The position numbers and the translations under genes were made by a program. Below the pieces are notes generated by a model. The model was not told the origin of the DNA, searched no databases, and saw only the letters and a program-made list of their open reading frames with translations. Positions 33,317-49,980 of a stretch of 64,000 bases of DNA are shown one piece after another. Source of the DNA: Dehalococcoidia bacterium (GTDB taxonomy: Bacteria > Chloroflexota > Dehalococcoidia > Bin125); contig CAXXNO010000012.1 of NCBI GenBank assembly GCA_963663235.2, positions 407,333 through 471,332 on the forward strand, in the 5' to 3' direction. Position 1 is the first letter of the stretch; each line of letters starts with the position of its first letter.

Positions 33317-34378
33317 ATGATCTGGATCGCCGTCGCGCTGGCAGCCGCCGCTGTCTGGGCGCTCTCCAGCACGCTGCTCGCCTCGCAGACAAAACAAGTT
33401 GACACGATCTCTATCAGCGCCCTGCGGGCGTTCTGGGCAATCCCATTCTTCGTGGCTGCGCTGTTCGCCTTCGGGGCCCAGAGCGATATCGCCAAGATGA
33501 GCCTCGGCGACATCCTGCAAATCTTCGGCCAAGGTGTGGTGGGCCCCACATTGGGTGACACGCTCTACGTCGCCGCGATCGCCATGCTGGGGATGACGCG
33601 GGCGTTCACTACCGTCATGGGGCTGTATGGCCTGATGGCCTACGTTTGGGCGGCGATCTTCCTGGGCGAGTCGGTCTCCTGGGAGGTCGCGGCTGGATCA
33701 GTCTTGGTGATCACGGGCGTGTACCTGGTGGCGCTTTACGGCCGGCCGCGAGGCACCACGGCCCCCGAGCCGACCCGCCGTTGGGCGTGGGCTCGCCGGC
33801 GCAAGCCGTCCAGCATCGCGGGGGGCAGCGGCGCCGAAAAGGGGCGCATAGCGGCGCGCTCCACGCACGCGGCTCCATCAGAGTCCCGCAGTCCTCCGCC
33901 TCCTCAGCGCGATGCGATTCCTCTGCCGTGGGGCGGCTCGCTCCGGCCGCGCGTCGGCCTGGGCATCGCGGCGGCGCTCTTGGTCGGCCTGCTCTGGTCG
34001 GGATCGTCCGTGTGGCTGCGCAGCATCTCCGACGGGGTCGATGCGTCGGCGGTGGGGATGGTGCGCGTGCCGTTCATCGCGATGATCTTGCTCGGTGCGT
34101 CATGGTTCGTCCGCGGCTCCACGCTTCGGCGGAACAGGATCTCGCTGCGCAGCCACTGGGTCTTAGCGCTGTCCGGCATCATCGGCACCGGCCTCACGAC
34201 GCTCTTGTTCATCCTAGCCATACAAGAGATCGGCGCGGGCCAGACCGTCGTCTTGTTCTCCACATCACCACTGTTTGCGCTGCCGATGGGATTCTTCTTC
34301 CTGCGGGAGAAGATCACCATCTGGGTGGTCGTGGGCACAGTCGTCGCCGTGGCCGGCATCATTCTGCTGGCCGCCTAG
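33317..34378 (+). CDS. DMT/EamA-family transporter
   Basis: Two EamA halves (IFLGE; FFFLREKI) with a long hydrophilic linker. Confidence 0.88.
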   Translation: MIWIAVALAAAAVWALSSTLLASQTKQVDTISISALRAFWAIPFFVAALFAFGAQSDIAKMSLGDILQIFGQGVVGPTLGDTLYVAAIAMLGMTRAFTTVMGLYGLMAYVWAAIFLGESVSWEVAAGSVLVITGVYLVALYGRPRGTTAPEPTRRWAWARRRKPSSIAGGSGAEKGRIAARSTHAAPSESRSPPPPQRDAIPLPWGGSLRPRVGLGIAAALLVGLLWSGSSVWLRSISDGVDASAVGMVRVPFIAMILLGASWFVRGSTLRRNRISLRSHWVLALSGIIGTGLTTLLFILAIQEIGAGQTVVLFSTSPLFALPMGFFFLREKITIWVVVGTVVAVAGIILLAA

Positions 34379-34524
34379 CCACCAGAAGCGCGGGGGCGTC
34401 CCCTGCATCTGATCACGGGCACTCAACCGGCGACTCGCTTGCCGAGCGGAGACCTGCGCGCCGATGAAGCCCACGCTACCCCCGATCGGGGTACGCACGC
34501 ATGGCCCCGCTTCCCCGTTTCGGC

Positions 34525-35487
34525 TCAGGCGCCGATCGTGATACCGAGCAACGCGGCTCTCACGCCACAAAGAGCCACGAGTGTAAGCAAGAGACGGTCT
34601 CGCATGAACACGCCGACCGGATCGCCCCCACCACCACGGCGCAAAATCTGGAGATAACGCGCGAGGCCAAACGCCATGAACGGCGGAATCGCGTAGAGCA
34701 CCCCTCCGACCGGAGCACCCTCATCACCAGACCACTGCACGGTCAGCGCGGTCCAAGCAGCGAGCGCACCGATCGCCCCCATCAGCACGAGGAGATCCAG
34801 CGCGCGCGGGCGATAGCATCGAAGGACGCCGCGATGTGCAACGGCCTGAGAGCCGAGCGTCATCAGTTCCGCCCGTCGCTTCCCTGCGACCAGCACGAGG
34901 GCCGCCAGGAGCACGCTGAGATCCAGCCACAGCGGGATCTCCACCCCGCCCGCCTCAGCGCCGGCGCGCAGGCGGAACGCGAAGCCCACGGCCACAATCC
35001 CTAGCTCCAGGTAGGGCACACGTTTCAGGCCAAGTGAGTAGACGAGGGCGATGGCCGCATAGCCGGTGGCCAGAGTCCCGACGGTGTGGTCCAGTGCGAA
35101 CGCCAAGGGCAGCGCGAGTGTCAACAGGACGGCCGCCACCACGAGAGCCAAAAGCGGCGAGAGGCGGCGCGAAGCAATAGGCCGTTGCCGCTTGACGGGA
35201 TGCACGCGATCGCCGGGAGCATCGATGACGTCGTTCACCAGATACAGCGCGCCGGCGACCAACGAGAACAGGCCGGCGGCGGCGGCCACGTGTAGCACCG
35301 GTCGAGTCCAGGTGCCCGGGTCGAACAGGGACCAGGCAACGCCGAGTGTCAAAACCGATGGCACAAAGAGCAGCACATTCTTCAGCCACTGGGAGGGACG
35401 CAGGGCCCGCACCAGCGGGCGTCCCATGTCCGCGCGCAGGGAGACGCTCGGACGCTCGACAATCCTGGCGCTCTCGTAGGAGGTCAT
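34525..35487 (-). CDS. Decaprenyl-phosphate phosphoribosyltransferase-like UbiA-family protein
   Basis: LRPSQWLKN, YLVNDVID..DRVHPVKRQRPIAS, YSLGLK, GFAFR, KRRAE, typical of the DPPR-synthase subfamily. Confidence 0.85.
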   Translation of the reverse strand: MTSYESARIVERPSVSLRADMGRPLVRALRPSQWLKNVLLFVPSVLTLGVAWSLFDPGTWTRPVLHVAAAAGLFSLVAGALYLVNDVIDAPGDRVHPVKRQRPIASRRLSPLLALVVAAVLLTLALPLAFALDHTVGTLATGYAAIALVYSLGLKRVPYLELGIVAVGFAFRLRAGAEAGGVEIPLWLDLSVLLAALVLVAGKRRAELMTLGSQAVAHRGVLRCYRPRALDLLVLMGAIGALAAWTALTVQWSGDEGAPVGGVLYAIPPFMAFGLARYLQILRRGGGGDPVGVFMRDRLLLTLVALCGVRAALLGITIGA

Positions 35488-37160
35488 TGCTCCGGAGGCC
35501 CGCGCTTGAGCCGGAACAGCTTCCAGTCTGGGCCCGTCCCCGGGAAGTCCAGCACCTTCACGGCGCGCCCGTTCAATTCCGGATAGATGTTCGGGTTCGC
35601 CTGGTGGATGGCATTGAATTCATCGGCGCCGACAGGATTTGGGAGCAATACCCAGTCCGCGAACTCCCACGGCTCCTCTACGGCATCCGCATAACCGGAG
35701 TGCGTGTAGTCAAAGACTGTGTCGCCCTCAAGACCGTAGCGAACTGCGAAGCCCGATCCAACGTAGTCCAGTAACACCCGCTCTCCGTCAGGGACCAATT
35801 GCTCGATCGTCTCCCCCACGGCCTTCCCTTCGGCCAGCGCGCGATCCGGTACCCGTTCACCTCGGAGCGCATCCCAGACGGTGGCCTCGACCTCCGTACG
35901 TCCGGACTCGCCCAGCGTGATCGCCCCGATCAGAGCGCCGAAGGCCAAAAGGACCAAGAGCATGCCCGCAGCCACAGGTCGAACGACATGCTGCCAGCGG
36001 TTCGGCCGCGGGAAGGCGATGAAGATGTACAGCATGGCGGGAAACGAGAGCGGAATCACCAGCGTGTACGGCCGAATCACCTCAACGCCGAACCCAGCGG
36101 CGAGCAGGACCGCTTGGGTGGCCGGCACCGTGATCACCAGGAGGCCCAAGCCCGCCCCCATGACCGAACGTCGCAAGATCCCGACGCCCAGCGCCCCGAG
36201 GCCAGCGATGATGGCGGTCGGGAACGCGATCATGGTGAGCCAGGAGGCCAGGCGGATGCCGCCGATGGCGCCCAAGGCGTCTTTCTCCGGCGCCAGCGTC
36301 AGCAGACCTTGGTCGCCATAGAGGAACCACAGCCCGTGGTCCTTGATCAGCCAACTCGCGACGATCCACAGCAGCATCGGGTAGAGCGCCGCCGCCAGAA
36401 ACGCGAGAACGACACCAAACCCTCGCGACGCACGAGTGAAATCGTCCGGCCAGCGAGGGGCCGGCTCCTGCCACACGGACCGGATCAACACCAGCGCCGC
36501 GGCCACCAGGGCTACGATCATCAGTTCATAGCGAGTAACGGTGGCAAGACCCAGCCAGATGCCGGCGAACACGACATCAGAGAGCTGACCGTCCCGGTTG
36601 TACTTCAGCAGACGATAGGCACCTCCGGCGAGGAACGCATAGGCGATCGGTTCACTCACGCTCACCATGGCCATCGCGACGACAACCGGGTTGAGGATGA
36701 AGAGCGCGGTGAACGCGATCCGCATTTGCCAGCCGAAGCCCAGCAGTGCGCAGGAACGCCAAATATGGAATGAGGCTAGCGCCATGAACACCGACGAGAC
36801 GATGCCAACGGCATAGAAGCTGGTGAAGAGCGGCTTGATCGCCGCGAACGGAATGAGAACGAGAGTGGGGATGGGCGGCAGGAGGAACCCAATGGACGCG
36901 AGCCGGCGCTCTTCACCGTGCGTGACGAGGTGTGCGCTCAGCAAACGGATTACCGAGTCGTCGCCGCGCAGTTCGCGATCGAAGATCAACCAGGCGGACA
37001 GCGAGAGAAACAGGATCAGGACCAGGGCCGGGATGACCCAGGCCTCATTCCGCGCGATCCACGTATCACGGCTGCCGACGGCGGCGCGCCAGCGAGCCTC
37101 TGGCAACACGCGAGGGAGCGGGCGAGGCGGCGCTGAGCCGAGGCGACGCTCCACGCTCAT
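35484..37160 (-). CDS. GT-C fold membrane glycosyltransferase (family 39-like)
   Basis: GD..R loop, IGFLLPPIP, LNP, SEP, TRYE; many TM helices and a C-terminal extracytoplasmic domain. Confidence 0.75.
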   Translation of the reverse strand: MSVERRLGSAPPRPLPRVLPEARWRAAVGSRDTWIARNEAWVIPALVLILFLSLSAWLIFDRELRGDDSVIRLLSAHLVTHGEERRLASIGFLLPPIPTLVLIPFAAIKPLFTSFYAVGIVSSVFMALASFHIWRSCALLGFGWQMRIAFTALFILNPVVVAMAMVSVSEPIAYAFLAGGAYRLLKYNRDGQLSDVVFAGIWLGLATVTRYELMIVALVAAALVLIRSVWQEPAPRWPDDFTRASRGFGVVLAFLAAALYPMLLWIVASWLIKDHGLWFLYGDQGLLTLAPEKDALGAIGGIRLASWLTMIAFPTAIIAGLGALGVGILRRSVMGAGLGLLVITVPATQAVLLAAGFGVEVIRPYTLVIPLSFPAMLYIFIAFPRPNRWQHVVRPVAAGMLLVLLAFGALIGAITLGESGRTEVEATVWDALRGERVPDRALAEGKAVGETIEQLVPDGERVLLDYVGSGFAVRYGLEGDTVFDYTHSGYADAVEEPWEFADWVLLPNPVGADEFNAIHQANPNIYPELNGRAVKVLDFPGTGPDWKLFRLKRGPPEQ

Positions 37161-37236
37161 GGCTGGCGCACCGGTAGCGCATTATCGCGATGGGATTGGA
37201 GGCCCGCCCAGAGCGGCAGGCCGGGCCGCAGCGACC

Positions 37237-37461
37237 TCAGGCGACCTCGGAACCCCTTGGAGGTATCGACGACGGTCGCGGCCGGCCGCGATGGAGCCAG
37301 TATCGCTTCCGATCGGTGCGCACGACGAGAAGCGTGATGAGGCCGATCGGACCCCAGATGCCGCCAAGGAGTGCGCCGACGATCGGCGAATCGCCCAGCC
37401 GCCAAGCCAGCAACAGGCCCATTACAGCGGATACTAGCGGGATCACAACAACGAACAGCAT
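37237..37461 (-). CDS. Small two-TM membrane protein
   Basis: MLFVVVIPLVSAVMGLLLAW...GALLGGIWGPIGLITLL; SD GAGGG. Confidence 0.55.
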   Translation of the reverse strand: MLFVVVIPLVSAVMGLLLAWRLGDSPIVGALLGGIWGPIGLITLLVVRTDRKRYWLHRGRPRPSSIPPRGSEVA

Positions 37462-37550
37462 GGCGTCCCTCGCGTCCTGGGATAAGCATTCTATTCCATT
37501 CCATCTGGCCGGCCAATCGCTCGCTCCGAACGAGCAGCGCCGCGTATCCC

Positions 37551-37918
37551 TTACGCGGCGGACGCATTGCGGGTCAGCAGGGCCACCCCCCCGGCGATGA
37601 TTGCGATTGCCAGCCAGCGGGTCGGCGGCACCCGCTCGCCCAGGGCCCAGGCGGACAGGATGACGACCGCGACGTAACCCAGGGCCAGCATCGGATAAGC
37701 CACGTTGAGGGGAGCCCCGATAGCACCCAGAGCCACAAGACGAGCGAGAGGCCGTACGCCGCAAGGCCGCCCCAGATCATCGGCGCTGTCAGCGCATCCA
37801 CGACCACATCCATGGGGGCGCGTCCATCGCCATCACCGACGCCCTGTTTGAAGGCCAGTTGCCCGGCCACGCCCAGCCCAATCGATCCGAACAGCGGTAG
37901 CAACCATGCCAACATCAC
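37551..37918 (-). CDS. SMR/ArnEF-like lipid-linked sugar flippase, split by a one-base deletion at about 37710
   Basis: GQLAFKQG...WLWVLSGLP joins LNVAYPMLALGYV...LGE when one C is added to a C4 run. Confidence 0.78.
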
Positions 37919-39705
37919 ACACCCCCTGCGCGATCCAGCTCCGAGGCAAGCGCGCCTGCCACTTCCGAGCGGCCGTCTGACGGCACATCGTCCGCGTCGG
38001 ACGGCCCGATGACGCGGAACAGCCGATGCTGGGAGCCGCTCTCCGGGAAGTCGGCCACCAACTCCACGAAGCCTTCACTCCCCTCGTAAAGGTCGGGATA
38101 GATGCGATAGATCAAGTTGCGGTCCGGCTCATTGATCTTGGACGCGCCCACCAGGATGTAGGTCACGCCACTGCTGTAAGGCCGGTGCACGAGATCGTCG
38201 TAATCGCGGTCCGTATTGATCACCACCCGATCGCGGTGTTCGATGTCGAACAGCAACAGAATCGTCTGGGTGGCGTCCACAAGGAGCAGATCGTCCGGCT
38301 GGAGAACGTCGTTGATGAGACCGGCCACGGGAGCGTTGTCGTCCCGCCAAGAGACCGCGGATTTGCTGAACAGCCCGTTGCTCGGCTGGCCATCCGTGTA
38401 GAGGCCGTTGTCCGCCATGGAGAACGCAATGGTTGCGGCTGAACCGATTACCACCGCACCGAGCCCGGCGGCGCTGAGCCATTGCTGCCGCGCGTGCGAT
38501 CGCGCTGTCCAGACCAGGTAGGCCAGCACCACGAGCCCGAGTGGAGTCGCATGGTTCCAGTTGCGGAGATAAGGCGGAAGCGTCCCTGTGTAGGTCTGGG
38601 CCGCCTGCGCGACCGGCACAGACAAGCTGAGTGCGAGCAGCGCAAGCGCCATGCGGTCATGCCGCGCCACCACCCGCCAGACAAGGAAGGGCACCGCGAT
38701 AAGGAACGGCGCCGCGGCCTGCAGCATCTTCAGGCTTGCCTGCGTGATCGTGCCGAAGACCGAGCCCTGCGCGGCGAAGAAGTCATTAATCGGACCCACG
38801 ATGCGCGCCACATCCAAGGCGTTCGCCGTCGAATAGGCGGAGTTCAGGTAGAAGAAGGGGTCACCCTGGATCTGGTAGTTCAGCCATGTCCACAGCGCGA
38901 CGGCCCACAGCAGCGGGGCCGTCAACGTGACCAAGGAAGCGGCGATAAAGGGCGAGCCCTCGCGGGGCGCGCTGCGGAAATGCACCAGCAGGGCCAGCAC
39001 CGCCGCGAACGCGACCGTCTCGTAGCGCGCCAGAAACGCGAACGCGAGCGACACGCCCGCCACGATGAGCGTGGAGTGGCTCCCTTCGCGCTCCCAGCGC
39101 AGCACTTGGTACAGCGCGAGGAGCACGAAGAAGATCCCCATCACCTGCGTCATGCCGTTGGCGGAGTACAGCCAGATCAGAGGGTTCAGGCTCCAAGCCA
39201 GGAGCCACGCCACCTGCCAGCCGCTGGACAGACCCCAATGGGCCAGCACGCGGCGCATCACCACGAGGGTACCGGCGCCGAAGATCACCGAGACCACGGG
39301 TCCCGCGTACAGGGTGAGCCCAATGGGTGTGAGGATGGGGAGCAGGGCCAGCCTGAGCAGTGTTGGCAGAGGAGGCCAAACGAAGCCGATCGCCCCCAGA
39401 TGGGGATCGCGGCTGCTGAGCACGCTGACGGCATCGAACGTGCGCGTGAGGGAATCGCCGGGCTGCCTCTCCCAGATCTCGACGACAAGCACGGCGAGAG
39501 CCAAGTACGCGGCTAGGGCAACGATGAAGATCCCGACGTCCCCGCGCACGAGCGCCAGCAGACCCGGCCGATCGGCGTCCCCCGAGGCGACGGCCTGAGC
39601 GCCCCGTGCGGCGCGCGTGTACGTGGTCGATTGGACGGCGGCCCGGATCCCTGCCCGAGTGGACGTCACCGAGAGCGCCGGCAGCGGTAGCGGCCTGCGG
39701 TTCAC
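37915..39705 (-). CDS. GT-C fold membrane glycosyltransferase (family 39-like)
   Basis: GDSLTR, SRDPHLGAIGFVWPPLP, LNP...NGM, ARYE; paralogous to 35484-37160. Confidence 0.78.
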   Translation of the reverse strand: MNRRPLPLPALSVTSTRAGIRAAVQSTTYTRAARGAQAVASGDADRPGLLALVRGDVGIFIVALAAYLALAVLVVEIWERQPGDSLTRTFDAVSVLSSRDPHLGAIGFVWPPLPTLLRLALLPILTPIGLTLYAGPVVSVIFGAGTLVVMRRVLAHWGLSSGWQVAWLLAWSLNPLIWLYSANGMTQVMGIFFVLLALYQVLRWEREGSHSTLIVAGVSLAFAFLARYETVAFAAVLALLVHFRSAPREGSPFIAASLVTLTAPLLWAVALWTWLNYQIQGDPFFYLNSAYSTANALDVARIVGPINDFFAAQGSVFGTITQASLKMLQAAAPFLIAVPFLVWRVVARHDRMALALLALSLSVPVAQAAQTYTGTLPPYLRNWNHATPLGLVVLAYLVWTARSHARQQWLSAAGLGAVVIGSAATIAFSMADNGLYTDGQPSNGLFSKSAVSWRDDNAPVAGLINDVLQPDDLLLVDATQTILLLFDIEHRDRVVINTDRDYDDLVHRPYSSGVTYILVGASKINEPDRNLIYRIYPDLYEGSEGFVELVADFPESGSQHRLFRVIGPSDADDVPSDGRSEVAGALASELDRAGGV

Positions 39706-39850
39706 GCTGTCGCGCTCCCCTCATGCACGCGCACGACACCAGACCACCCGGCCCTGATCGCTACCGACGCGCGGCCCCCGCCCGGACACTTGAGCGGAGC
39801 CGACTGCACTACGTTCCGAAGTCTCGTCATGCGACGCACCAACAACGTCC

Positions 39851-40723
39851 CTACTGCGACAACAGCGCCCGGCTCGCAACGCGCATCTGAGACCGCCGGG
39901 CGAATTCCAAGGCCTGCTCGGCCTCGTTGATCAGATCGCCCACGGACACGGCATCTTCCGGAAACTCCGCCAAGCCGATGCGCACGCTGATGGCGAGATC
40001 CTGCTGGAGTCGCTCCACCAACCGCTCGGCGAGAATGCTGGCACCTGCGGACGGCGTCTCCGGGAGGATCAAGGCGAAGGCGGAGGGCGTGTGCTGGATC
40101 ACCTTGTCGGTGGTGCGCAGGATCCCGATCATCACCTCCACGACGCCGCGCAGCACGCGGTTCGCCTCGTCCGGGCCGCGATCCGACACGATCTGCGTCC
40201 AGTTCTCGATCCCCATCAGCATCAACGACAGCGAGTGATGGTAACGCCGAGAGCGCTCGTTCTCTTCGGTCAGCAGTTGCTGGCCGAAGCGGGGCTCCAG
40301 CGCGCCGGTGACAATATCGAAGCGGCTCAATTCACGGATTGCCTGACTCCGCGTGGCCAACTCACCGCGGACGTTCGCGCCGGCTGCGTGATAAGCCCGG
40401 GCCAAGAGCCACGCGCCCACCAGGGTCACAGCCATCACCGCGGCCGGCAGGATGCCGTCGTCCTGGAGGTCCAGGGCGGCCTGATTATCCGCGCGCGCGA
40501 TCATCACGATCGCGAAGGCCACAGCCGCGATCACGGCCGCAATCTCTACCGCGAACAAGACCGGGTGCGTCAGCACGGCGATCACGGCCACTGCCAGGAT
40601 GGCGACACCGAGCACCGCGAACTCGTCCTCATCAGTAACGAGCACCAGCACGCCAGCGCCGACAATTACCCACGCCGCCAAGCAGGCGGCCCAAAACTGT
40701 AAGAGCAGGGTGTACTTAATCAT
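39851..40723 (-). CDS. 4-TM protein with degenerate GGDEF domain (putative c-di-GMP receptor)
   Basis: DIVTG, ERSRRY..LSL, RTTD (RxxD I-site), active-site position reads TPSAF instead of GGDEF, ILPET, GLAEFP; start overlaps the upstream stop. Confidence 0.8.
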   Translation of the reverse strand: MIKYTLLLQFWAACLAAWVIVGAGVLVLVTDEDEFAVLGVAILAVAVIAVLTHPVLFAVEIAAVIAAVAFAIVMIARADNQAALDLQDDGILPAAVMAVTLVGAWLLARAYHAAGANVRGELATRSQAIRELSRFDIVTGALEPRFGQQLLTEENERSRRYHHSLSLMLMGIENWTQIVSDRGPDEANRVLRGVVEVMIGILRTTDKVIQHTPSAFALILPETPSAGASILAERLVERLQQDLAISVRIGLAEFPEDAVSVGDLINEAEQALEFARRSQMRVASRALLSQ

Positions 40724-42944
40724 GTTCCAGTTCCTCGCTGGAGCGATCCACGCGCCACAAGTGCAGCCCGAGTAACGCCAGGCCGAAGACACCCAGCGCC
40801 GCGACCACGGCCGCTATCACCTTGTCGTCAAAGTCCAGGCCGCCGTCGTCGTCGCCTTCGCGGTCGACGTCTGTGATATTGGCCGTGAGCGCCTCCGTGA
40901 TCTCGGCGGCGGTGCGGGGAAACGTTTCGACCTTGTCGCGGGCGGTCACCACCGTGAGGGGCCCACTGGCCTCCAGGCGGCCGAGGGCCCGTCTCCCCCA
41001 GAAGAGGCCGTCTCGGGACGTGCCTGTGACGACCAGAAGCGATTTCTCGGTGTTCCAGGGTGAGGGGGCGACCATCAGCACGCCCAGTTCCGCCTCCGGA
41101 TCGATCCCGCGATCAAGCAGGACCTCGGTGCGCAAGATCCGGTCGGTCCCATTGACGAACTGGAGCGGCAGGCTGGCGCCCGCCTCGTTGATCAAGCCGA
41201 GGGCGCTGGGCCGCCCCACCAGGATTACATGGTGCCCCGCAAGGAGCGCGTCCGTGACTTCATCTTCCGGCACCACACGCAGCGAGAAGGGGTCCAGCCC
41301 CGAGTACGCGCCGAGGTCAAAGACCAAGCCGAACAACTCCTCGGGCTGCATCCCGGACGGCACGACCACCAAGGTCCCGCTGGGGTCACCGAACGCGTCC
41401 ATGAACGGCCACGGATAGAAGGTGAGATCGTGCAGGGGGATGACGTCCGTGCCCGGGAGGCGGATCCGGCTTTCGGGATGAATCTCCAGCCAGGCGCGTT
41501 CTTCCGCGAGTGGATCGTCCAGGCAAGTGTTGAAGGGCCCTTCCGGCTGGTCCAGGATATATAGGCCGGTGGCGAGGGTCAGTTCGTTCACACCCGGACG
41601 GATCGCCTCCGCCGGGATCGTGATGGGAATGGAGATCCGCTCGAAGCGGCCGTCGAAGCGGAGCGGAATGGTCTCCAGGTTCACGCCGTTCAGGATGATG
41701 AGCAGATTGGAGGGCTCCGGGTCCAGCTCACGCGAGAGGGAGACGATCAACTCCAGCTCGCCATCGCCGGTGGGCGCGGGCGCCAAGAACTGGATCGTGG
41801 CGAGGGCACCGCTGATGCCCCGCAGCTGGATGCCGAAGGGCGCCTGCAGGTCGGCGAAGGCGAACTGCACACCCCCGTCAAACGGTTGCCCGCGGACCGT
41901 CGCGCCGAGTGCGTCGCGGACGATGGCGAACTCGCCGGCCAGCGTATCCATCCCTTCGCTGCCGGAGACCGCCTGAGCCGCCCTGCTCAGCCCGACGGGG
42001 CCGTCGCCAGAGACGATCAAGGCGCCGTGCTTATCGCTGAACGGACTCACGGTCTCTTGCAGGAAGCCCACGCTCGGACCGGTGACGGTGGCGCCGGTGG
42101 ACGATACGTCGCCACTCACCACAAGCGGATTCCGCCCCGTGGTGCCGACACTGATGATCGACGCATCGGCGGTGGCTGCCGACGACGGTACGCCGATGTC
42201 GAACCGCACCGGCACAAAGAACGCAGCGCCCGGGCCTACGATCTGTCCGAGGCCACCCACGATTGAGGCCGCGGCCGAGAGCTCTGCGCTGTTCGGATTC
42301 GCCGGCAGCAGCACGTGCGTGTCGGTCTTGAAGGGGAAGGGAAGGCGCAGATATGGCTCGGGATAGTTCGCAAGGTTCGGCACGAAGATCGGGCGCGTGT
42401 CGTCAGGCACGTACTCGTAGTGCAGCAGCGTGGGACTTTCGATGAGCGTCCAGAGCGCCGGGTTCTCCGCGTCGTCGCAGAAATCCGTGAGGCGCATGAG
42501 GAAACTCAATCCGATCCGGTTGAACAGCGGATCCAGGAGGCGGGCCGGTAGGTCCACCGTGATCGTCGTGGATTCGATGTTGATCTCGTCGAGCCGCACG
42601 GATGTCAGAGAGGAATCGTTCAGCAACACCGTCATGGTGGAGAGATCCGGGCGCAAGAGCGGCGAGTGGCTGAACGTCAGTTGCAAGAAATGACCAGACG
42701 GCTCCAGCACCCAGCCATCCGGACCGGGGAAGAAGATCTCCACGGTGGCGATGATCCCTCGCGCGACGACGTCTCTGATCTGCAAGTCAATCAAGGTGAC
42801 GTCTTGTGGCGGTGGATCGTCGGCGTGCAGTGACCGCACGCTCACGGCGGTCGCGCTCACAGCGACGGCCAGTAGCGCCACCGCAAGCAAAATCCTGCTG
42901 GACACCCGTCGCCAGACTTTGTGATTATTCGGTGCGTGCACCAC
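40716..42944 (-). CDS. BcsB-like polysaccharide synthase partner subunit
   Basis: Signal peptide; twofold repeat (FSHSPLL..DLSTMTVLLN / SNLLIILNG; LANYPEPY / LTFYPWPF; SPF / SPWN); C-terminal TM anchor; SD AGGAGG. Confidence 0.8.
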   Translation of the reverse strand: MVHAPNNHKVWRRVSSRILLAVALLAVAVSATAVSVRSLHADDPPPQDVTLIDLQIRDVVARGIIATVEIFFPGPDGWVLEPSGHFLQLTFSHSPLLRPDLSTMTVLLNDSSLTSVRLDEINIESTTITVDLPARLLDPLFNRIGLSFLMRLTDFCDDAENPALWTLIESPTLLHYEYVPDDTRPIFVPNLANYPEPYLRLPFPFKTDTHVLLPANPNSAELSAAASIVGGLGQIVGPGAAFFVPVRFDIGVPSSAATADASIISVGTTGRNPLVVSGDVSSTGATVTGPSVGFLQETVSPFSDKHGALIVSGDGPVGLSRAAQAVSGSEGMDTLAGEFAIVRDALGATVRGQPFDGGVQFAFADLQAPFGIQLRGISGALATIQFLAPAPTGDGELELIVSLSRELDPEPSNLLIILNGVNLETIPLRFDGRFERISIPITIPAEAIRPGVNELTLATGLYILDQPEGPFNTCLDDPLAEERAWLEIHPESRIRLPGTDVIPLHDLTFYPWPFMDAFGDPSGTLVVVPSGMQPEELFGLVFDLGAYSGLDPFSLRVVPEDEVTDALLAGHHVILVGRPSALGLINEAGASLPLQFVNGTDRILRTEVLLDRGIDPEAELGVLMVAPSPWNTEKSLLVVTGTSRDGLFWGRRALGRLEASGPLTVVTARDKVETFPRTAAEITEALTANITDVDREGDDDGGLDFDDKVIAAVVAALGVFGLALLGLHLWRVDRSSEELEHD

Positions 42945-42952
42945 GTCCCCTC

Positions 42953-44266
42953 CTATGCAACCGCCAGGGCAACCGCGAGCGTCCCGCTCCCGGTCACCGC
43001 CAGCGCCATTCCGATCGATGCAACGACTGCTGGCCGCGACCTGAACGGCAGCTGGCGATCGCCGCTCAGTGCACTCAGCGCCAGCAACACGACTACCAGG
43101 GCCGCCATCAGCGGCCCGATCAGTTGTCCCACGAAGGGCGTGGCCGTGATGCCAACCAGGGTCAGCAATCCAACCGCGAGTATGGCGAGTCCCACGAGAC
43201 CGGCGCCCGCTCCCGGATGTCCGCGACGGGCAGCCCACACGATCAGCGTCAGCAAGGGAAGGCCCGCCACGACGGCCGGCGCCGCGACCGCGATCTTCTC
43301 AGCGAACGACCAACCACCGATCGTGTTGCCCAGATCGGCGAAGGCGCCGCCGAACGCGCTCCACCAGACGCTCTGCGAACCGATGGCGAGCAGCGGGTCG
43401 CGGCCGCTCACCAGGTCGGCGAGCGCAACCACCCGGGTCCAAAGCACCGCCACAGCCGCGAAGACGACCGGCACGAGGTAGGCCGAGAGAACCGCCTCCA
43501 CGGCAGCGCTCCGTTGGATCCCGTCGCGGTCGTCCGCGGGCGTCGTCAGCCGGCGCAGTGTGCGTGCTCGCATGAAGAGCACGGCCAGGATCGCCAACGC
43601 CACGGGCACGACCGCATACCACATCATCAGCGTGAGCCCCACGAAGAACCCGGCGGTGACCACCGGCCCCGCTTCTCGCGATGGCGCCCAGCGCCAGAGC
43701 GCCGGTACCACGGCGATTGCGAGCAGGACCAGCGCGACCGTGGCGGATCCCGCTCCGGCCGTGAGCAGCACCAGTGGATTCACGAAGAACGCCGCCCAGA
43801 TCAGCCAGCGCAGGGGACGGCTCAGACTGAGCGACCGCAGCAGCGCCAACAGCATGGCCGACGCGATGGCCAGTACGAACGCGGCGGCAATCGGATCGGC
43901 AAGGCTGTGGCGGTCGATGGTATCTACCGCGGCGAAGGGAGCCCGCAGCAAGGCCCAGACGGGAGCCCAGGTCTGCGCCGCCCAGGTGTCGGCCTGGTAA
44001 TCCAGCGCGAGCGCGCGCCAGGATACGAGCGCGTCCTGCCACGCAGCCGGCAAGGGGCTGTGCCCCGGAAACGCCAAGAGCAACGCGGCCAGCAAGACGA
44101 GTGCGGGCGCCAACACCAGAGCCACCCAGATCTCACCGTGGGGCAGGACGACGGCCGCGCGCGGCCGCTCGATCATGCGGGCGGCCAACGCCGCCGGGCT
44201 CTGCGAGACCGGGGTGAGCGTGGGCGGCGCCATTTGCGGCTCAGCGCTGGAGACGAAGGTCGACAT
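42953..44266 (-). CDS. Multi-pass membrane protein, distantly GT-C-like
   Basis: About 11 hydrophobic segments; FVNPLVL motif shared with the two GT-C genes. Confidence 0.6.
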   Translation of the reverse strand: MSTFVSSAEPQMAPPTLTPVSQSPAALAARMIERPRAAVVLPHGEIWVALVLAPALVLLAALLLAFPGHSPLPAAWQDALVSWRALALDYQADTWAAQTWAPVWALLRAPFAAVDTIDRHSLADPIAAAFVLAIASAMLLALLRSLSLSRPLRWLIWAAFFVNPLVLLTAGAGSATVALVLLAIAVVPALWRWAPSREAGPVVTAGFFVGLTLMMWYAVVPVALAILAVLFMRARTLRRLTTPADDRDGIQRSAAVEAVLSAYLVPVVFAAVAVLWTRVVALADLVSGRDPLLAIGSQSVWWSAFGGAFADLGNTIGGWSFAEKIAVAAPAVVAGLPLLTLIVWAARRGHPGAGAGLVGLAILAVGLLTLVGITATPFVGQLIGPLMAALVVVLLALSALSGDRQLPFRSRPAVVASIGMALAVTGSGTLAVALAVA

Positions 44267-44275
44267 GTACGTGCC

Positions 44276-46898
44276 CTACCGTCTCTCTGTACCCACGGAC
44301 ACGACAACTTCGCCTCGGAAGAGGCCGTGCTCGGTCTTCTCCCAATAGAACGGCCGGAAGATCAGTTGGTATGCCGCCTTCCAGGCCGCCACGCTCATCA
44401 AGATCCAGTACAAGGGACTGATCAGGCCCCACTTCACCAGGCCGTAGTAGCGGCGCCGAAGGGCTCCGGCCATGGCGACATAGGCGAAGGCGAAATTACC
44501 GAAGTAGAGGGTCACGGCTCCCATGAAGAAGATGGGCGTGGGAAAGAGATCATTGATGAAGTCGGGTCGGAAGACCAGCCAGATCACCGTGATCGTCCAG
44601 AAGATCGGATTGGCCAGGAAGCCGAAAATCGTTCCCGCCATGATCATCTGGAACGAGAAGAAGCCGTACGTGCCGAGTTCGCGCCACAGCTTGATCGGCC
44701 GACGCATATGCACCAACCACGTCTGCATGTAGCCCTTCACCCAGCGGGAACGCTGGCGGATCCAGTTGCCCACGGCGGAGTTGGCTTCCTCGAAGGTCGT
44801 GGAGTCGATTACCGCGGTGTTCCAGCCGCGCTTGAAGATCCGCAGTCCCACGTCCGCGTCCTCCGTGACGTTGAAGGGGTCCCAGCCACCGACCTCGCGG
44901 AGCCGATCGGTCTTGAAGTGATTCGATGTGCCGCCGAGGGGAATCGGCGCGCCCGTTCCGTCCAGCCCCGGCATCAGCAGGTCAAACCACATGGAGTACT
45001 CGCTGGTGAACCAGCGCGTGAGGATATTCTGGTTGCGATTGAAGTAGTTCAGTTTGGCCTGCAGGCACACGTACTCATCCGGCAACTTCCGGAACGCCAC
45101 CACGGCCTTCCGTAGCTGGTCGATCTCGGGCACGTCTTCGGCGTCGTAGATGACCAGATACTCCCCGCGGGCGTGGAGCAGACCGTAGTTACAGGCCTTC
45201 GGCTTCCCTTTCGGATCGCCCTGCGGCACGATCAGCATCTCCATGTGCGGCGGAAGGCGGAGGCGGCGCACGGCCTCTACGGTCTCCGCGTCGTCCTCTT
45301 CCAGGATCACCTTGATGTCCAGTTTGCTCCGCGGATAATCGAGCGAGTTCAGCGCAGAGACGACCAGCGGCACGATCTGCGGTTCTCGATACATCGGGAC
45401 CAGCACGGTATAGATGGGGAGCGAGGCGTCTCCGAGTTCGGCGAGCTCTTCCTTGCTCGTTGGGACCTCGAACTCGTGTCCCAATGCTCGATAGATGAGG
45501 TAGAACTTGTACGACGAGAACGCCGTGTAGAAGGCAGCGGCGGCGCCGAACAACACCTGCAGCGTGATCTTCCAGTCCAGCAGCAGTCCCAGCACCACCA
45601 GCGCCCCGATACCCGCTGCCCAGAGCAACTGCCTCTTCGTGAATACGGTGGACGCCGAGTCTTCGGGGAAGCGGACCAGGAGCTCCGTGGCCGCCCGCTC
45701 CACGTACTCCGCCCGATAGATCCGCTCAAGGACCTGTTCAATCGCCTCCTCGGAAGCCCACACCGGCTGCACCGGCTGTCCGACCTCGCGCCGGATGGTC
45801 TCCAGCGCCGCGGTATTCAGTGGATCGGACATGGCCACCGTGATCCCGCTGTCGGTGACGAAGATCGGAATCGCCAGGTAACGACGCGCCGTGGCTTCGC
45901 TCAGGCGTCGCACGACCTGTTCCTCGGGTTCCATCTCGGCAAGGTCGAAGAAAGGGACCTCGTGCTGCTCGGCGAGAAAGGAAGCCAGTTGCTCGGCCGT
46001 GATGTAGCGCAGCTCGCGCAGCGCCTGCCCGAGGCGCACGCCAGTCGCGCGGCTCAGGCGCAAAGCATGCTGCAGTTCGGTGCGCGAGATGATTCCCGCC
46101 AAGCGCAGATGCTCTCCCAGCGAAAACTGTCCGTTGACGCGTTTGGTCGCAGCGCGCACTTCACCGCGCGGCGCAGCGACGACCGTGATCGGCGAGGACA
46201 GGGCCTCTTGCACTGCAGCCCTCGCCGCCTCGTCCGTGGGGTCGGCGAACGCGACGGTCAGCCGTCCATCCCGCTCCTCGTATGAGATGGCCACGTGTTG
46301 CTCGGCGATGGGCCGTGGCAGATGATAGGCAGCGGCCGGGTCCACCGGATCGACTGTGATGGTCTGGATGCTGCGCACGCCGACGGCGTCCACGACCTCC
46401 CGAGCCTCCTCGCGCAAATCGAGTGAGACGAGCGGGACGCCGGCCACCTGTGCCATTTCAGCCGCGACATCAGCCGGCATGAGCGTCGACGCGGCGAGCA
46501 CTGCCTCGTCGCCCGGAAGGCGCTCGTCCACCACTAGATGCCAAGCGCGGACGCGGTCCGCCGGCGAGAGTTTGCCCGCCTGAACGAGCCGGTCGGTCAG
46601 CAGATGCACTGAGGACGGCACCTCACCGCGGTCCACGCCGCGGGAGGCCGCCGCCATGGCGAATTCCCCGGGTGGCGCCACCGCCGCGAGCACTGGCCGC
46701 CCGATGCGATCGCTCAGCGCTCGCACGCGCTCCGGCGCGGGGTCCGTGAAGGCGATCGTGACAACGCCATCATCCCACCGCAGAGGGCAGGCCTGGAACT
46801 CCGCCACGTCAGCTTCGGAGAGGTGGCGGAGAACGGTGCGGTCGGGCAGCCAGCGCAGCGGCGACACATTCGGCAGCCCGTAGCTAATCGCCCGGGCT
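44276..46898 (-). CDS. Processive GT2 polysaccharide synthase with tandem N-terminal MshEN/T2SSE_N domains, 5' end cut by IS
   Basis: VLVPMYRE, KPKACN, YDAED, TED, QRSRW, WEKTEHG; MshEN motif SLGEHLRLAGII...RLGQALRELRYITAEQLASFLAEQ; three AFxDP/AMSDP repeats; ORF-track start lies inside the IS. Confidence 0.88.
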
Positions 46899-46965
46899 TG
46901 ACCTGCCCCCCCAGAACCGGTCCAGATCCTGTGCGAGGATTCGGGCCGGTGCGAAGGGAGTCGGC

Positions 46966-47244
46966 ATGGCACGCAAGCGGTACGCGGCCGAGGAGATCAT
47001 CGGCCACCTGCGGGAGGCGGAGGGGGTGCTCGCGCCGGGGGAATCGGTCGCGCCGGTCGCGCGCCGCCTCGGCGTGGCCGAGCCAACGTATTACCGCTGG
47101 CGGCGGGAGGACGGGGGGCTGCGGGTCGACCAGGCCAAGCGGCTGAAAGAACGGGAGCGCGAGAACAGTCGGCTGAAGCGGGTGGTGGCCGATCAGGCGC
47201 GGGACAACGCGATGGTGCGGGACGTCGCAGCGGGAAACTTCTGA
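46966..47244 (+). CDS. IS3 transposase OrfA (HTH)
   Basis: MARKRY..EEII..LRE...TYYRWR...ENSRLKRVVAD. Confidence 0.88.
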   Translation: MARKRYAAEEIIGHLREAEGVLAPGESVAPVARRLGVAEPTYYRWRREDGGLRVDQAKRLKERERENSRLKRVVADQARDNAMVRDVAAGNF

Positions 47245-48083
47245 GCCCGGCCAAGCGGCGCCGGGCGACATCCTACCGCACGGACCCGTACGCGGTGGCG
47301 GAGCGGCGGGCCTGCCCGGTCACCGGCCAGGCGCGGGCGACCCAGCGCGACGTGCCCCGGCCGTCCCCGGATGCGCCGGCGCTGATCGCGCGCAGCGTCG
47401 CGCTGGCCACCCGCTGCGGCCGCTACGGCTCCCGTCGCATCCCGGCCCGGCTGCGCCAGGCGGGCTGGCGGGTGAACCCCAAGCGGGTCGAGCGGCGCTG
47501 GCGTCAGGAAGGCTGGCGGGTCCCCGGGAAGCACCCCCAACGGGGCCGCCGCTGGCTCGCGGCCGGCTCGCGGGTGCGGCGGCGGGCCGAGCGGCCGTCC
47601 CACGTCTGGTCCGACGCCTTCGTCTTCGACCGCACCGCCGAGGGGCGCCCGGTGCGGATCCTCGCCATCGTGGATGAGGACCACCCGCGAGGGCCTGCGT
47701 CTCGACGTCGCCCGCCGACGGCGCCGCGACGTCGAGGCCTGGCGCGGTTGGCCCAGCTGTTCGTCGAGCGCGGGCCGCCGACGTTTCTGCGGTCCGCCAA
47801 CGGCCCGGCGTTCACCGCCACCGCGGTGCGGGACTGGCTGCACCGGGTCGGGGGCACGACCCGCTTCATCGAACCGGGCAGGCCTTGGGCGAACGGCTCT
47901 GGGGAATCGTTCAACGGCAAGCTGCGCGACGCGTGCCTCAATCGCGAGCGCTTCGACACCCTGCTGGAAGCCCAGATCCTCATCAAGGGCTGGCGGCGGG
48001 AGGACAACCCGATCCGCCCCCACCGTGCCCTCGGCTCCCGCCCCCCGCCCCGGAAACGCAGCAACCCCGGAAACGTCCCATGA
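47241..48083 (+). pseudogene. IS3 transposase OrfB, catalytically dead
   Basis: rve core recognisable (ESFNGKLRD, RPH) but DDE aspartate positions read Ala (WSDAF, RSANGPAF); local frame disruption at about 47680-47740. Confidence 0.85.
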
Positions 48084-48141
48084 CGCGCGTCCCGGCGATC
48101 GGACGAACTTAACGACTGGTACAACGATCGGGGGCAGGTCA

Positions 48142-48462
48142 CTTCAGTAGGTAGCTCTTGGCGCCGGCGCGCAGCGCCTCGAAGACGTAGCGGTCTTCGT
48201 CATAGTTCGAGAGGATGATCACCTCCGTGGCGGGGAACTCCGTACGAATACGACGGGTGGCCTCCACGCCGTCCATCCCACTCATGCGCACGTCCATGAG
48301 GACGACATTCGGGCGGAGGGCCTGTACTTTCTCGAGGGCCTGCTGGCCGTCCCCGGCCTCCCCCACGACTTCAAGATCAGGCGAGAGTGCGGTCATCTTG
48401 CGCAAGCCCTCGCGAATCACCGGGTGGTCGTCGACGATGAGGAGCGAGATGCGAGCCATCAT
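48142..48462 (-). pseudogene. NarL-type response regulator truncated by IS
   Basis: LIVDDHPVIREG, VLMDVRM, GAKSYLLK then a stop supplied by the IS end; last helix and HTH missing. Confidence 0.88.
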
Positions 48463-49980
48463 TCGACCTCCGGTCTCGGAATCGCCACTTCAATAATCGT
48501 CCCTACGTTGGGCTGGCTCACTATCGCCGCGCGTCCGTGCATGCGCGCGGCGCGCTCCCGCATGCCGGCCAGGCCGAAATGGTGTGAGGAGGCGGCTCCC
48601 GTGAGCGCCTCGTCGACCGGAAAGCCGACGCCGTTATCCTCCACGCTCACGGCGATGAAGTCTTCCGCAAACTCGACGGCGGTGCACACGGCCGAGGCGC
48701 GCGCATGCTTGTTCACGTTGAGCAATGCCTCCCGCGCGATCAGGAACAAGCCCTGCTGGATTGATTCCGGCAGCTGGACCGGCTCGCCCTCCACCACGAA
48801 GTCAAGTTGCAGGCCGTTGGTTCGGGCGAAATCCTCCGCATAGTCGCGCAGCGCCTCGCTCAGTCCAAGATCGCCGACGTTGGCCAGCCGCAGATCAAAG
48901 ATGAGACTGCGGAGCTGACTGATCACCCGTCTGACCTCATCCCGGACGTTCTGGATCGAGAGCGCGGCCCCGCGAGAATCCTGCTCCAGAACTCGCAGAG
49001 CCAGCTCGCTCTCAATCACGGCGCTGGTCAGCTGCTGGACCGGGCCGTCATGGAGCTCACCGGCCAAGCGTCGCGATTCGGCAGCTTGCAGTGTCTGCAA
49101 GTCGATACACCGATCTGCGTTGACGTCACTTCCCGTCAGCCGCTCGGCGAGCGTTCCCGCGGCCTCAGTATCGACGGTGTCGAAGGGCCGCTCCATCGGA
49201 TCGAAGAAGGCGAGGACACCGGCCTCGCCGTACGTGGCGGCGAGGGGGACAGCGAGCAGATCCACCACGCCGGCGCTCTGGAGGCGATCGCGTGCCGGAT
49301 AATCGTCCGTAATGAGCGGTCGCCGTTGAAGGGCAACAGGCGAGTGAGAGACTCGCGGGCGGCGACGCGAGCGGGCTCGGAGTCCTCGCCGGGCCACTCC
49401 ACGTAGCGGCACGCGCCCGTGGCGGTGGGGATCAGCGCGGTGACGCGAGACGCCCGCAGGAGCCGTCCGACGAGGCTGAGATCCCAGCCGCTCACGGTGG
49501 CCTCGCCCGAGGTCGGCGCCCAACGACCACCGACGTCCGCCACCACGACGATGTCCCCCGCGAGAGCGTCCACGGCTTCTGCCACCGACGCGGCCATCCT
49601 CAGGCGGGCCAGCACAGGGCCGAGGGTCGTGGCGAGACCCTGGAGCAAGCGAGCGCGCCCCTCCATGCGGTCCTGCGGCCCGCCGATCATGACCAGTTCG
49701 CCGAACGGCTCCTCCATGGGGAGCACCTGCCGCAGCACGAGGCGGATGGATCCGGACTTATCGGGCCAGACACGCATCGACGCGCCGTTCACCGACGCAT
49801 CCGCCCGGAGCTGGGCGACGGCCTCATACCACTCGCTGGGGAAGGGCCGATCCGGGTCATCGTACAGCCGGTCGTCCCCAGGACCAGCCCCCCCACGTCG
49901 CAGGCCGTGAGCGAGCGCGCAGCGCGCACGACGCCGGATAAGAAGGGACGCAACTCCGGCGTGGAAAAGTCTACTGGCAT
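48459..49980 (-). CDS. HisKA_3 (NarX-type) sensor histidine kinase with GAF-like region, split by two frameshifts
   Basis: ESRRLAGELHDGPVQ, REALLNVNKHA, DNGVGF, FGLAGMRERA; three ORFs join by adding one base at 49876-49879 and one at 49331-49333. Confidence 0.8.

Follow-up and report, generated by a model that had tools for sequence, protein, structure and literature searches.

What does a row of nine co-oriented genes in a 64,000-nucleotide (nt) stretch of Dehalococcoidia DNA make, and which of its parts belong together? The row (g1 to g9, all on the minus strand, 34525-46972) lies in contig CAXXNO010000012.1 of assembly GCA_963663235.2, and we refer to the whole stretch analysed as the window. 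From the sequence alone, an earlier note had read it as a hybrid machine gated by cyclic di-GMP (c-di-GMP), in which a backbone extruded by a synthase is branched outside the membrane with arabinose or ribose taken from a polyprenyl donor. Our analysis indicates a damaged locus that belongs to a widespread, partly named synthase family whose defining feature is a GT-C partner. The conserved unit is the MshEN-array GT2 synthase together with a dedicated GT-C-fold protein and not the pentose part, and the pentose cassette is a rare add-on built from a known module type. The earlier reading had missed two defects, a synthase gene cut by an insertion sequence (IS) and a frameshifted flippase-like gene. 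The nine genes are the following.

44276-46898, minus strand: g1, 5′-truncated synthase with three MshEN domains, two transmembrane (TM) helices, a processive GT2 domain and C-terminal TM helices (Pfam, NCBIfam)
42953-44266, minus strand: g2, divergent GT-C-like protein, TM part only, in the slot directly after the synthase (profile comparison)
40716-42941, minus strand: g3, BcsB-like subunit, signal anchor at the N-terminus and TM helix at the C-terminus (PF03170, 7.8e-45)
39851-40723, minus strand: g4, degenerate GGDEF protein with four TM helices, start ATG at 40723 (PF00990, 2.6e-16)
37915-39705, minus strand: g5, protein of predicted GT-C fold from a clade normally found directly after the synthase (AlphaFold2, Foldseek, tree)
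37551-37918, minus strand: g6, DMT/EamA-like putative lipid-sugar flippase with four TM helices, frameshifted near 37715-37718
37237-37461, minus strand: g7, 74 amino acids (aa), two TM helices, no Pfam family
35484-37160, minus strand: g8, GT-C-fold protein whose clade relatives mostly have genes for a polyprenyl-phosphate sugar synthase and a flippase-like protein as neighbours (NF047440, 1.4e-5)
34525-35487, minus strand: g9, UbiA-family protein of the DPPR synthase / PPPRS type (NF008978, PDB 8j8j)

The identities originally proposed for the nine genes were borne out by Pfam, NCBIfam, profile comparison and, in the case of g5, AlphaFold2 and Foldseek; the hidden Markov model check of each gene against Pfam and NCBIfam agreed with the earlier gene list. 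All nine show the third-position GC bias typical of the genome's genes. They are closely packed: two junctions have gaps of 9 and 11 nt and three overlap, by 8, 4 and 4 nt (g8 and g9 sharing 4 nt), and junctions are looser between g4 and g5 (145 nt) and on the two sides of g7 (~90 and 76 nt). A promoter and terminator scan of positions 34300-48300 returned no more sites than were found after shuffling the sequence, with the g4-g5 gap empty of them, and is silent on operon structure.

Conservation of the arrangement was examined in relatives. A pattern scan covering a single genome for each species yielded 297 relatives of g1, and 79 loci, from Chloroflexota (mainly Anaerolineae) and Actinomycetota (Thermoleophilia), were kept and probed by tblastn with the window proteins. 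A g5-type GT-C match was found in 74 of the 79 loci, a BcsB match in 38, a dead-GGDEF match in 34 and a UbiA match in a single one, and neither an SMR-like nor a g7 match was obtained in any. In 65 loci the GT-C open reading frame (ORF) starts no more than 400 nt past the synthase stop codon on the same strand, often overlapping it; in the rest, the GT-C gene lies elsewhere in the locus (9), the contig ends (2) or the same query finds none (3). Full-length Chloroflexota synthases measure ~1320 aa and carry 5-6 MshEN domains, those of Thermoleophilia ~750 aa with 2, and the Thermoleophilia loci combine GT2 and GT-C with no BcsB detected by tblastn. As a reverse test, GT-C and synthase profiles were run on 200 Chloroflexota genomes, a sample not picked by synthase. 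Results showed both proteins in 27 genomes, the synthase only in 4, the GT-C protein only in none and neither in 169, so that GT-C occurs in 27 and the synthase in 31 of the 200; where they co-occur, the two genes are mostly adjacent. The co-occurrence that the earlier note expected in relatives therefore holds for synthase and GT-C and fails for the pentose part (UbiA in one locus out of 79), and its GT-C proteins are present but not as an accessory, being near-constant partners of the synthase (74/79 loci, 27/27 genomes).

In four genomes checked, GT2 and GT-C are fused in a single ORF of 993-1231 aa, GT2 first, the GT-C module having no C-terminal domain (L132:4097-7534, L133:1757-4744, L134:2501-6196 and L135:1929-4910). 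Pfam recognised GT2 and PMT_2 in one and GT2 only in the other of two fused ORFs scanned, and detected no MshEN domain in these two. An AlphaFold2 model of one fusion (predicted template modelling score, pTM, 0.76) was confident for both modules and not for the linker. A co-fold of the separate GT2/GT-C pair of Pelolinea submarina supports binding of the two proteins in the model: it scored 0.65, the best of three controls 0.00, and a score of 0.65 was attained in 58 of the 80 solved complexes and in 2 of the 110 mismatched pairs used for calibration, counts that hold only roughly because our own alignments were used. Runs shared at least 67% of contacts, and the partner had a predicted local distance difference test (pLDDT) value of at least 81. 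No solved complex of a GT2 synthase with a GT-C protein is known to us that the model might simply have reproduced. In the predicted interface, a GT-C helix with the conserved Glu, Tyr and Trp residues of its family contacts the final TM helices of the synthase, and the interface residues are invariant or nearly so in both families; the conserved Glu is kept in g2 and absent from g5 and g8.

The pairing also occurs outside these phyla. The Geobacillus stearothermophilus conjugative plasmid pEF60063-1 (L136) carries in a row genes for a sugar phosphate nucleotidyltransferase, BcsB, GT2 and a 'GT39 family' protein, the last matching the GT-C profile at 2.4e-12. Since the BcsB/GT2/GT-C set of this conjugative plasmid is flanked by transposase and recombinase genes, the module is evidently mobile. 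Two other GT2 relatives from the plasmid search, in Shinella and Mycobacterium riyadhense, were set aside, as profiles found no adjoining GT-C or BcsB. The proteins directly after the synthase in L017 (4143-5897) and L024 (4417-8675) were likewise rejected as GT-C (hhalign probability < 1%); in these and similar Anaerolineae loci they are CE4 polysaccharide deacetylases and GH113 hydrolases, neighbours that may hint at an N-acetylated or mannan-like backbone. In a further related cluster, a 2589-aa open frame follows the GGDEF gene (L005:2015-9784, genome G027).

We then considered the three GT-C candidates of the window. For g5 the fold had to be predicted because searching PDB chains by sequence yielded no usable match (best E 0.65). 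The AlphaFold2 model (pLDDT 85, pTM 0.87) had 27 Foldseek matches in the PDB at E <= 1e-3; among the matches listed all are GT-C enzymes, ALG12, ArnT, STT3, AglB, DPY19, PMT, AftD and PglB included, and g5 is thus predicted to adopt a GT-C fold. Weak PMT_2 matches and the NCBIfam LA_3751/3752 putative glycosyltransferase model were common to g5 and g8, so that the earlier assignment of two clear GT-C proteins stood, in g5 by structure prediction and in both by family matches. A homology search with g5 returned 24 matches, all hypothetical or unnamed, the best non-self one 33% identical. At the position of D84, an acidic residue in the first extracytoplasmic loop after TM1, 56 of 57 members of the GT-C family have D or E. 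In a quick tree, g5 fell in a 24-row clade (SH-aLRT, a branch support value, 96) whose members are partners encoded directly after the synthase, and g8 grouped with seven GT-C proteins in an 8-row clade (SH-aLRT 100); both placements are provisional because both proteins sit on long branches. Clade-mates of g8 in L017, L018 and L055 lie away from the synthase and adjoin ArnC/GtrB-like and MprF-TM-like genes, and ArnC/GtrB-like polyprenyl-phosphate glycosyltransferase genes (1e-51 to ArnC structures) were found in 7 of the 79 loci. For g2, Pfam and NCBIfam gave no family; comparison with the locus GT-C alignment A2 (hhalign) gave a probability of 98.4% and an E value of 5e-15 over residues 44-365, and so upheld the weak GT-C protein listed before.

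The remaining core genes point to control by c-di-GMP. In g1, Pfam found three MshEN stretches (2e-42) and Glyco_trans_2_3 (9.4e-22). The translation shows DAED, TED and QRSRW, and TM helices flank the GT domain, as in processive GT2 enzymes; the catalytic D, DxD, TED and Q(R/Q)xRW columns are invariant over 58 homologues. MshEN receptors are described as binding c-di-GMP through two 24-residue motifs linked by 5 residues (PMC5013675). In the last, membrane-proximal MshEN domain of g1 such motifs start at residues 284 and 313, 29 apart, each matching 9 of 11 positions; the same tandem pair is present in the last MshEN domain of three relatives, and no such pair was found in the other two domains of g1. 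With a score of 46.4 bits against NCBIfam NF053729 (cut-off 38 bits), this domain is predicted from its motifs to be a c-di-GMP receptor. No MshEN match lies elsewhere in the genome. The g3 protein scores 153.8 bits against PF03170 (cut-off 21 bits) and its translation has the hydrophobic ends of a BcsB subunit; its true start is probably the GTG at 42941, preceded by AGGAGG. In g4 the I-site is kept as RTTD (RxxD) and TPSAF replaces GGDEF, as read from the translation. With its TM helices, dead GGDEF domain, RxxD and GT2 and BcsB neighbours, g4 fits a predicted I-site receptor of the type of Listeria PssE and Bacillus YdaK, a better precedent, given their GT2 and BcsB-like neighbours, than the PelD invoked earlier; the RxxD protein itself was seen correctly. 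Since the genome has seven further GGDEF regions, c-di-GMP signalling is present. Domains and motifs thus support a predicted c-di-GMP-sensing processive GT2 with several MshEN domains, accompanied by BcsB-like, dead-GGDEF (RxxD) and GT-C proteins, as the note had it.

The putative pentofuranose genes form a module type known to feed GT-C enzymes, and here too the identification of a DPPR-synthase-like UbiA protein, encoded with a small putative flippase, was supported. The best NCBIfam model for g9 is decaprenyl-phosphate phosphoribosyltransferase NF008978 (2.9e-48, 164 bits, below the 207-bit cut-off), and g9 aligns at full length (residues 20-310, 3.8e-29) with the Mycobacterium tuberculosis DPPR synthase, PDB 8j8j, across the NDxxD..DR and KR..RPIA stretches. 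The ALO/DprE1 domain (PF04030) had no match in the 92%-complete genome; ribose is therefore more likely than arabinose, which disfavours one of the two sugars first suggested. The putative flippase, described before as SMR/ArnEF-like, is encoded by a small gene for four TM helices; that gene is frameshifted, matches EamA only weakly and in its C-terminal half (2e-4), and has no SMR-like counterpart in the 79 loci. Of g6, 68 codons are in one frame and the remainder in another. In the frameshift region three public sequencing runs (X7, X10, X11) equal the window exactly, and a fourth (X12), which differs at 10 letters over 9.6 kb, has one extra base behind 37717 that joins both frames. The intact gene in X12 and the frameshift in the three other runs indicate a real strain-level mutation and not an assembly slip.

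On these grounds we regard the locus, with moderate confidence, as a damaged copy of a widespread, biochemically unstudied, c-di-GMP-gated and synthase-dependent exopolysaccharide machine with a pentofuranose side-chain module. Its core would be g1, a processive GT2 with an MshEN array, together with a dedicated GT-C-fold membrane partner of the g2 and g5 types, to which the Chloroflexota core would add the BcsB-like g3 and the four-TM dead-GGDEF I-site receptor g4. Binding of c-di-GMP to the membrane-proximal MshEN domain and to the RxxD site of g4 would switch the synthase on; the enzyme would then polymerise a nucleotide-sugar and extrude the chain through its own channel, BcsB assisting. 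Docked on the final TM helices of the synthase, the GT-C partner would modify the emerging chain from a polyprenyl-phosphate sugar. In the side-chain module, g9 would make polyprenyl-phospho-ribose(-5-P) from phosphoribosyl pyrophosphate (PRPP), g6 would flip polyprenyl-phospho-ribose across the membrane and g8 would transfer the pentofuranose, probably ribose. Of the hybrid machine drawn in the earlier note, the core and the module types are retained, with the qualification that the pentose is rare and the copy damaged; the pentose part does not belong to the conserved unit, as UbiA is present in 1 and an SMR-like gene in 0 of the 79 related loci.

Several findings weigh against this explanation. 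None of the three GT-C copies has the full conserved-residue signature: g5 lacks three family-conserved charged residues (it has Q164, Q187 and A255), g8 lacks E255, and from g2 E187, R227 and the C-terminal domain are missing. Both the co-fold and the fusions come from relatives and not from the window's own proteins. In g1 there is no native start, and its in-frame start codons have no obvious ribosome-binding site. As for the pentose module, a UbiA gene adjoins the synthase in only that one locus of 79; 233 of 401 Chloroflexota genomes have UbiA homologues (230 of 398 when three unpublished genomes are left out), usually one per genome and away from the synthase; and in 45 UbiA loci, most spanning ~1.5 kb per side, no homologue of g5, g8, g6 or g7 lies beside UbiA. 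Published three-component systems are described as requiring a phosphoribose phosphatase (PMC11127046), and a Pfam and NCBIfam search confined to the nine locus genes found no HAD or PAP2 protein. Lastly, g5 and g9 are each found in 0 of 24 same-family genomes, so that the g1-g9 region was probably acquired. The frequency of DPPR-synthase-like UbiA proteins (those 233 genomes) in turn suggests a common polyprenyl-phospho-pentose pathway in Chloroflexota.

How much can the window's own copy still do? The synthase gene is cut by the following element.

46899-48141 (1.24 kb), plus strand: IS3-family insertion sequence with orfA at 46966-47244 (HTH_Tnp_1, 8.5e-18) and orfB at 47295-48083 (rve_3, 9.4e-20)

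The element lies between the truncated synthase and a truncated response regulator, adjoining both. Besides it, blastn found 19 full or partial matches in the genome (85-99% identity); they lie on contigs C4, C6, C8, C9, C10, C11 and C12, and because several copies sit at contig ends, the IS3-family element probably breaks the assembly. The open frame of g1 runs to 46972, within the IS, and its alignment to the 1321-aa synthase of a class relative begins at residue 446 of the latter, which corresponds to window position 46897. As homology starts at 46897 and the multicopy element at 46899, g1 is left without its native start. The lost 5′ part amounts to ~445 codons, comprising three further MshEN domains (3 of 6), the start codon and the promoter, and it was found nowhere in the 92%-complete genome. 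We compared the region with Logan contigs of the four public runs named above, which come from two studies; runs X1-X6, which hold 5-6% of sampled words, were left out, and no inference on habitat is drawn from them. The contigs of three runs end exactly at 46899 and those of the fourth continue 26 bases into the IS, and contig depth climbs 20- to 100-fold at 46899 in all four. A conserved ORF of ~95 aa with no Pfam family lies directly upstream of the synthase in 13 of the 79 loci (e.g. L012:2206-2508); the window stretch that would match it is deleted.

Because the IS3 element removed 3 of 6 MshEN domains, the start and the promoter of g1, and because g6 is frameshifted, output in the window's strain is probably reduced or lost. 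Its strongest form, a decaying relic that makes nothing in this strain, is a serious contender that we place a little short of an even call, and it is compatible with any of the other readings. It is favoured by the IS junction lying exactly where homology to full-length relatives starts, by the missing 5′ part of g1, by contigs of runs from two studies ending at or 26 bases past the IS boundary, by the g6 frameshift common to 3 of 4 runs, by conserved residues lost in all three GT-C copies and by the cut response regulator next door. However, the remaining eight frames are open and have the third-position GC typical of the genome's genes, g1 keeps its motif-bearing MshEN domain and a complete GT2 domain, and Thermoleophilia relatives manage with only 2 MshEN domains. 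Moreover, an in-frame GTG for g1 is present inside the IS, and the ends of insertion sequences can drive outward transcription.

Within the favoured exopolysaccharide machine, what the GT-C partner does admits of two answers. We tentatively propose that it is an obligate, bound and sometimes fused co-subunit modifying the chain at the synthase exit, with lineages swapping lipid-donor cassettes. Equally tentatively, the cassettes exchanged would be an ArnC-like enzyme with an MprF-TM-like flippase elsewhere, and the PRPP-dependent UbiA protein with a small DMT flippase here. Alternatively, and in our view unlikely, the partner plays a structural part as co-subunit, or acts as a transferase by which the entire polymer is attached to or primed on an acceptor (lipid, protein or wall); its role would then lie in export or anchoring of the polymer and not in decoration, which we likewise doubt. 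Pointing that way, most loci have no lipid-sugar synthase gene (ArnC-like in 7/79, UbiA in 1/79), the fused forms and g2 have no extracytoplasmic C-terminal domain, several conserved residues lie in the predicted interface helix and not in an obvious active site, and Thermoleophilia loci have GT2 and GT-C without BcsB. Against it, 56 of 57 members retain the acidic residue that follows TM1 and is typical of GT-C catalysis, housekeeping polyprenyl-phosphate sugars could act as donors, and genes for a lipid-sugar synthase and a flippase adjoin GT-C genes in some loci.

The weakest alternative, which we consider improbable, holds that two unrelated systems lie side by side, an exopolysaccharide synthase (g1-g4) and a three-component glycosylation system (g5-g9) for another envelope glycan or protein: the 145-nt g4-g5 gap among otherwise tighter junctions, the commonness of UbiA homologues without a synthase (233/401 genomes), their absence from 78 of 79 related synthase loci and a genome (G027) with UbiA and synthase cluster on different contigs would suit it, but the GT-C family of g5 and g8 was seen only in genomes with the synthase (27/27 in the 200-genome sample), mostly adjoining it, the clade-mates of g8 sit within synthase loci of relatives, and a UbiA gene adjoins the cluster in L013 too.

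Returning to the machine as a whole, its setting is a stretch of high-GC DNA in a genome of 2.75 Mb (14 contigs, 92% complete) whose relatives are Chloroflexota of the class Dehalococcoidia. On the far side of the IS, Pfam identified a two-component pair.

48139-49523, minus strand: two-component pair upstream of the cluster, comprising a GAF/HisKA_3 histidine kinase (48459-49523) and a response regulator (48139-48462) cut down to its receiver domain

Response regulators of the same family are present in 7 of the 79 related loci, with a median length of 228 aa. A sugar-phosphate nucleotidyltransferase with a hexapeptide-repeat tail is encoded 3 kb upstream of the cluster (50191-51222, plus strand) and may supply the synthase donor. 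Directly past g9, on the opposite strand, lies a gene for a full-size EamA-family transporter (33317-34378, plus strand, 1.3e-31).

Cellulose, poly-N-acetylglucosamine, Pel and alginate are the textbook synthase-dependent exopolysaccharides of biofilm matrices, and we know of none whose synthase has a GT-C protein as a fixed partner. Here, one synthase family is nearly always paired with a GT-C protein, and sometimes fused to it, in Chloroflexota, Actinomycetota and a Geobacillus plasmid; to judge from the domains that papers describe, the family may also include the Xanthomonas xag clusters and the sfz clusters tied to the stalks of iron oxidisers. Were the partner to decorate the chain as it is made, two fields studied apart, that of c-di-GMP-gated synthases and that of lipid-linked extracytoplasmic glycosylation, would be joined, and genes tied to biofilm formation and to the building of mineral stalks would be given functions. 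A GT-C protein bound at the synthase exit would represent a new way of decorating a polysaccharide during its synthesis and would account for the unexplained third gene of the xag/sfz clusters. To this picture the window adds a pentofuranose donor cassette and a view of the system being eroded by an insertion sequence.

How does the locus compare with known systems? With BcsA-BcsB it shares a GT2 domain with D, DxD, TED and QxxRW (PDB 4hg6 and 5ej1, ~1e-15, residues 504-873) and a BcsB subunit. Cellulose is not to be assumed as the product. The g1 protein has fewer TM helices than BcsA, and it was rejected as a BcsA cellulose synthase proper, Pfam finding no PilZ domain in it and TIGR03030 scoring 80.6 bits against a CelA cut-off of 699 bits. 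NfrB of Escherichia coli is reportedly a c-di-GMP-activated GT2 exopolysaccharide synthase controlled by a fused MshEN domain. The NCBIfam NfrB model matches g1 only in the MshEN part (2.3e-17); NfrB has a single C-terminal MshEN domain whereas g1 has an array at its N-terminus, no match between the two GT domains is seen at the threshold used, and the partner is NfrA in one case and GT-C plus BcsB in the other.

Closer in composition are Listeria monocytogenes PssA-E and Bacillus subtilis YdaJ-N, compared here by description, which share GT2, a BcsB-like protein and a degenerate-GGDEF I-site receptor. For PssE a dissociation constant of 0.79 uM for c-di-GMP is given and for YdaK 4 predicted TM helices (PMC4125290, PMC5422440). 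By analogy with these accounts, the g1/g3/g4 trio resembles Listeria PssC/D/E and Bacillus YdaK/M/N in how it may work (PMC4125290, PMC5422440), the g3/g4 pair being likened to PssD/E and YdaN/K. In contrast to both, the window synthase itself carries MshEN, a GT-C partner is near-constant in its family and the window has no GH8-type hydrolase.

For the pentose module, the precedent is the three-component system of Citrobacter youngae O1/O2 (ORF15, ORF14 and ORF12, the last the founder of GT136), in which, as described, a PRPP-dependent UbiA phosphoribosyltransferase, a flippase and a GT-C enzyme add pentofuranose outside the membrane, and absence of an epimerase predicts ribofuranose (PMC11127046). 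This system and the mycobacterial route of DPPR synthase, Rv3789 and Emb-Aft follow the UbiA/flippase/GT-C plan predicted for g9, g6 and g8. The acceptor differs, being O antigen in Citrobacter, arabinan in mycobacteria and, as proposed here, a synthase-extruded polymer; the flippase is a MATE protein in Citrobacter, an SMR protein in mycobacteria and, putatively, a small DMT-like one in the window; and the phosphatase, a domain of its own on Citrobacter ORF15, has no counterpart in the window locus genes. The earlier remark that the combination was not recognised as a characterised pathway is accordingly to be narrowed, UbiA, flippase and GT-C being together an already published type (PMC11127046, as described there) and only the whole unstudied. 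In the main texts of the literature, supplements aside, we found no description of an MshEN-GT2 plus GT-C system, of the identity of a partner GT-C, of the fusions or of the pentofuranose add-on; related proteins may be included in two such supplements, SI Figs S11/S12 (PMC11127046) and Supplementary Table 5 (PMC5013675).

Novelty of the layout has to be qualified in the same way, since BcsB, an MshEN-GT2 and a ~500-aa protein have been named together before, in the passages cited, as xag/sfz/sfb (PMC4643136, PMC8250860), biochemically unstudied. In Xanthomonas, xagA and xagB contribute to biofilm (PMC3609779). By published domain descriptions, on which the likeness in layout rests, xagABCD and the bcsB-xagBCD, sfz1-6 and sfb1-4 clusters of stalk-forming iron oxidisers comprise a BcsB-like gene, a GT2 with an N-terminal T2SS-E domain (MshEN-type), a ~500-aa gene of unknown role and a glycoside hydrolase; Sfz1 is BcsB-like, Sfz2 joins N-terminal T2SS-E to a GT2 with QxxRW and TED, and Sfz3 has ~500 aa (PMC8250860, PMC4643136). 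A protein atlas search bearing on XagC gave generic PMT_2 and ArnT-like clusters only, mostly from Actinomycetota. Polymer chemistry is uncharacterised in xag/sfz as in the window, and the parts of the xag/sfz papers used here report no dead-GGDEF partner and recognise no GT-C. The xag/sfz clusters belong to Proteobacteria and have one sensor domain, whereas the Chloroflexota relatives have 5-6 and the window retains 3.

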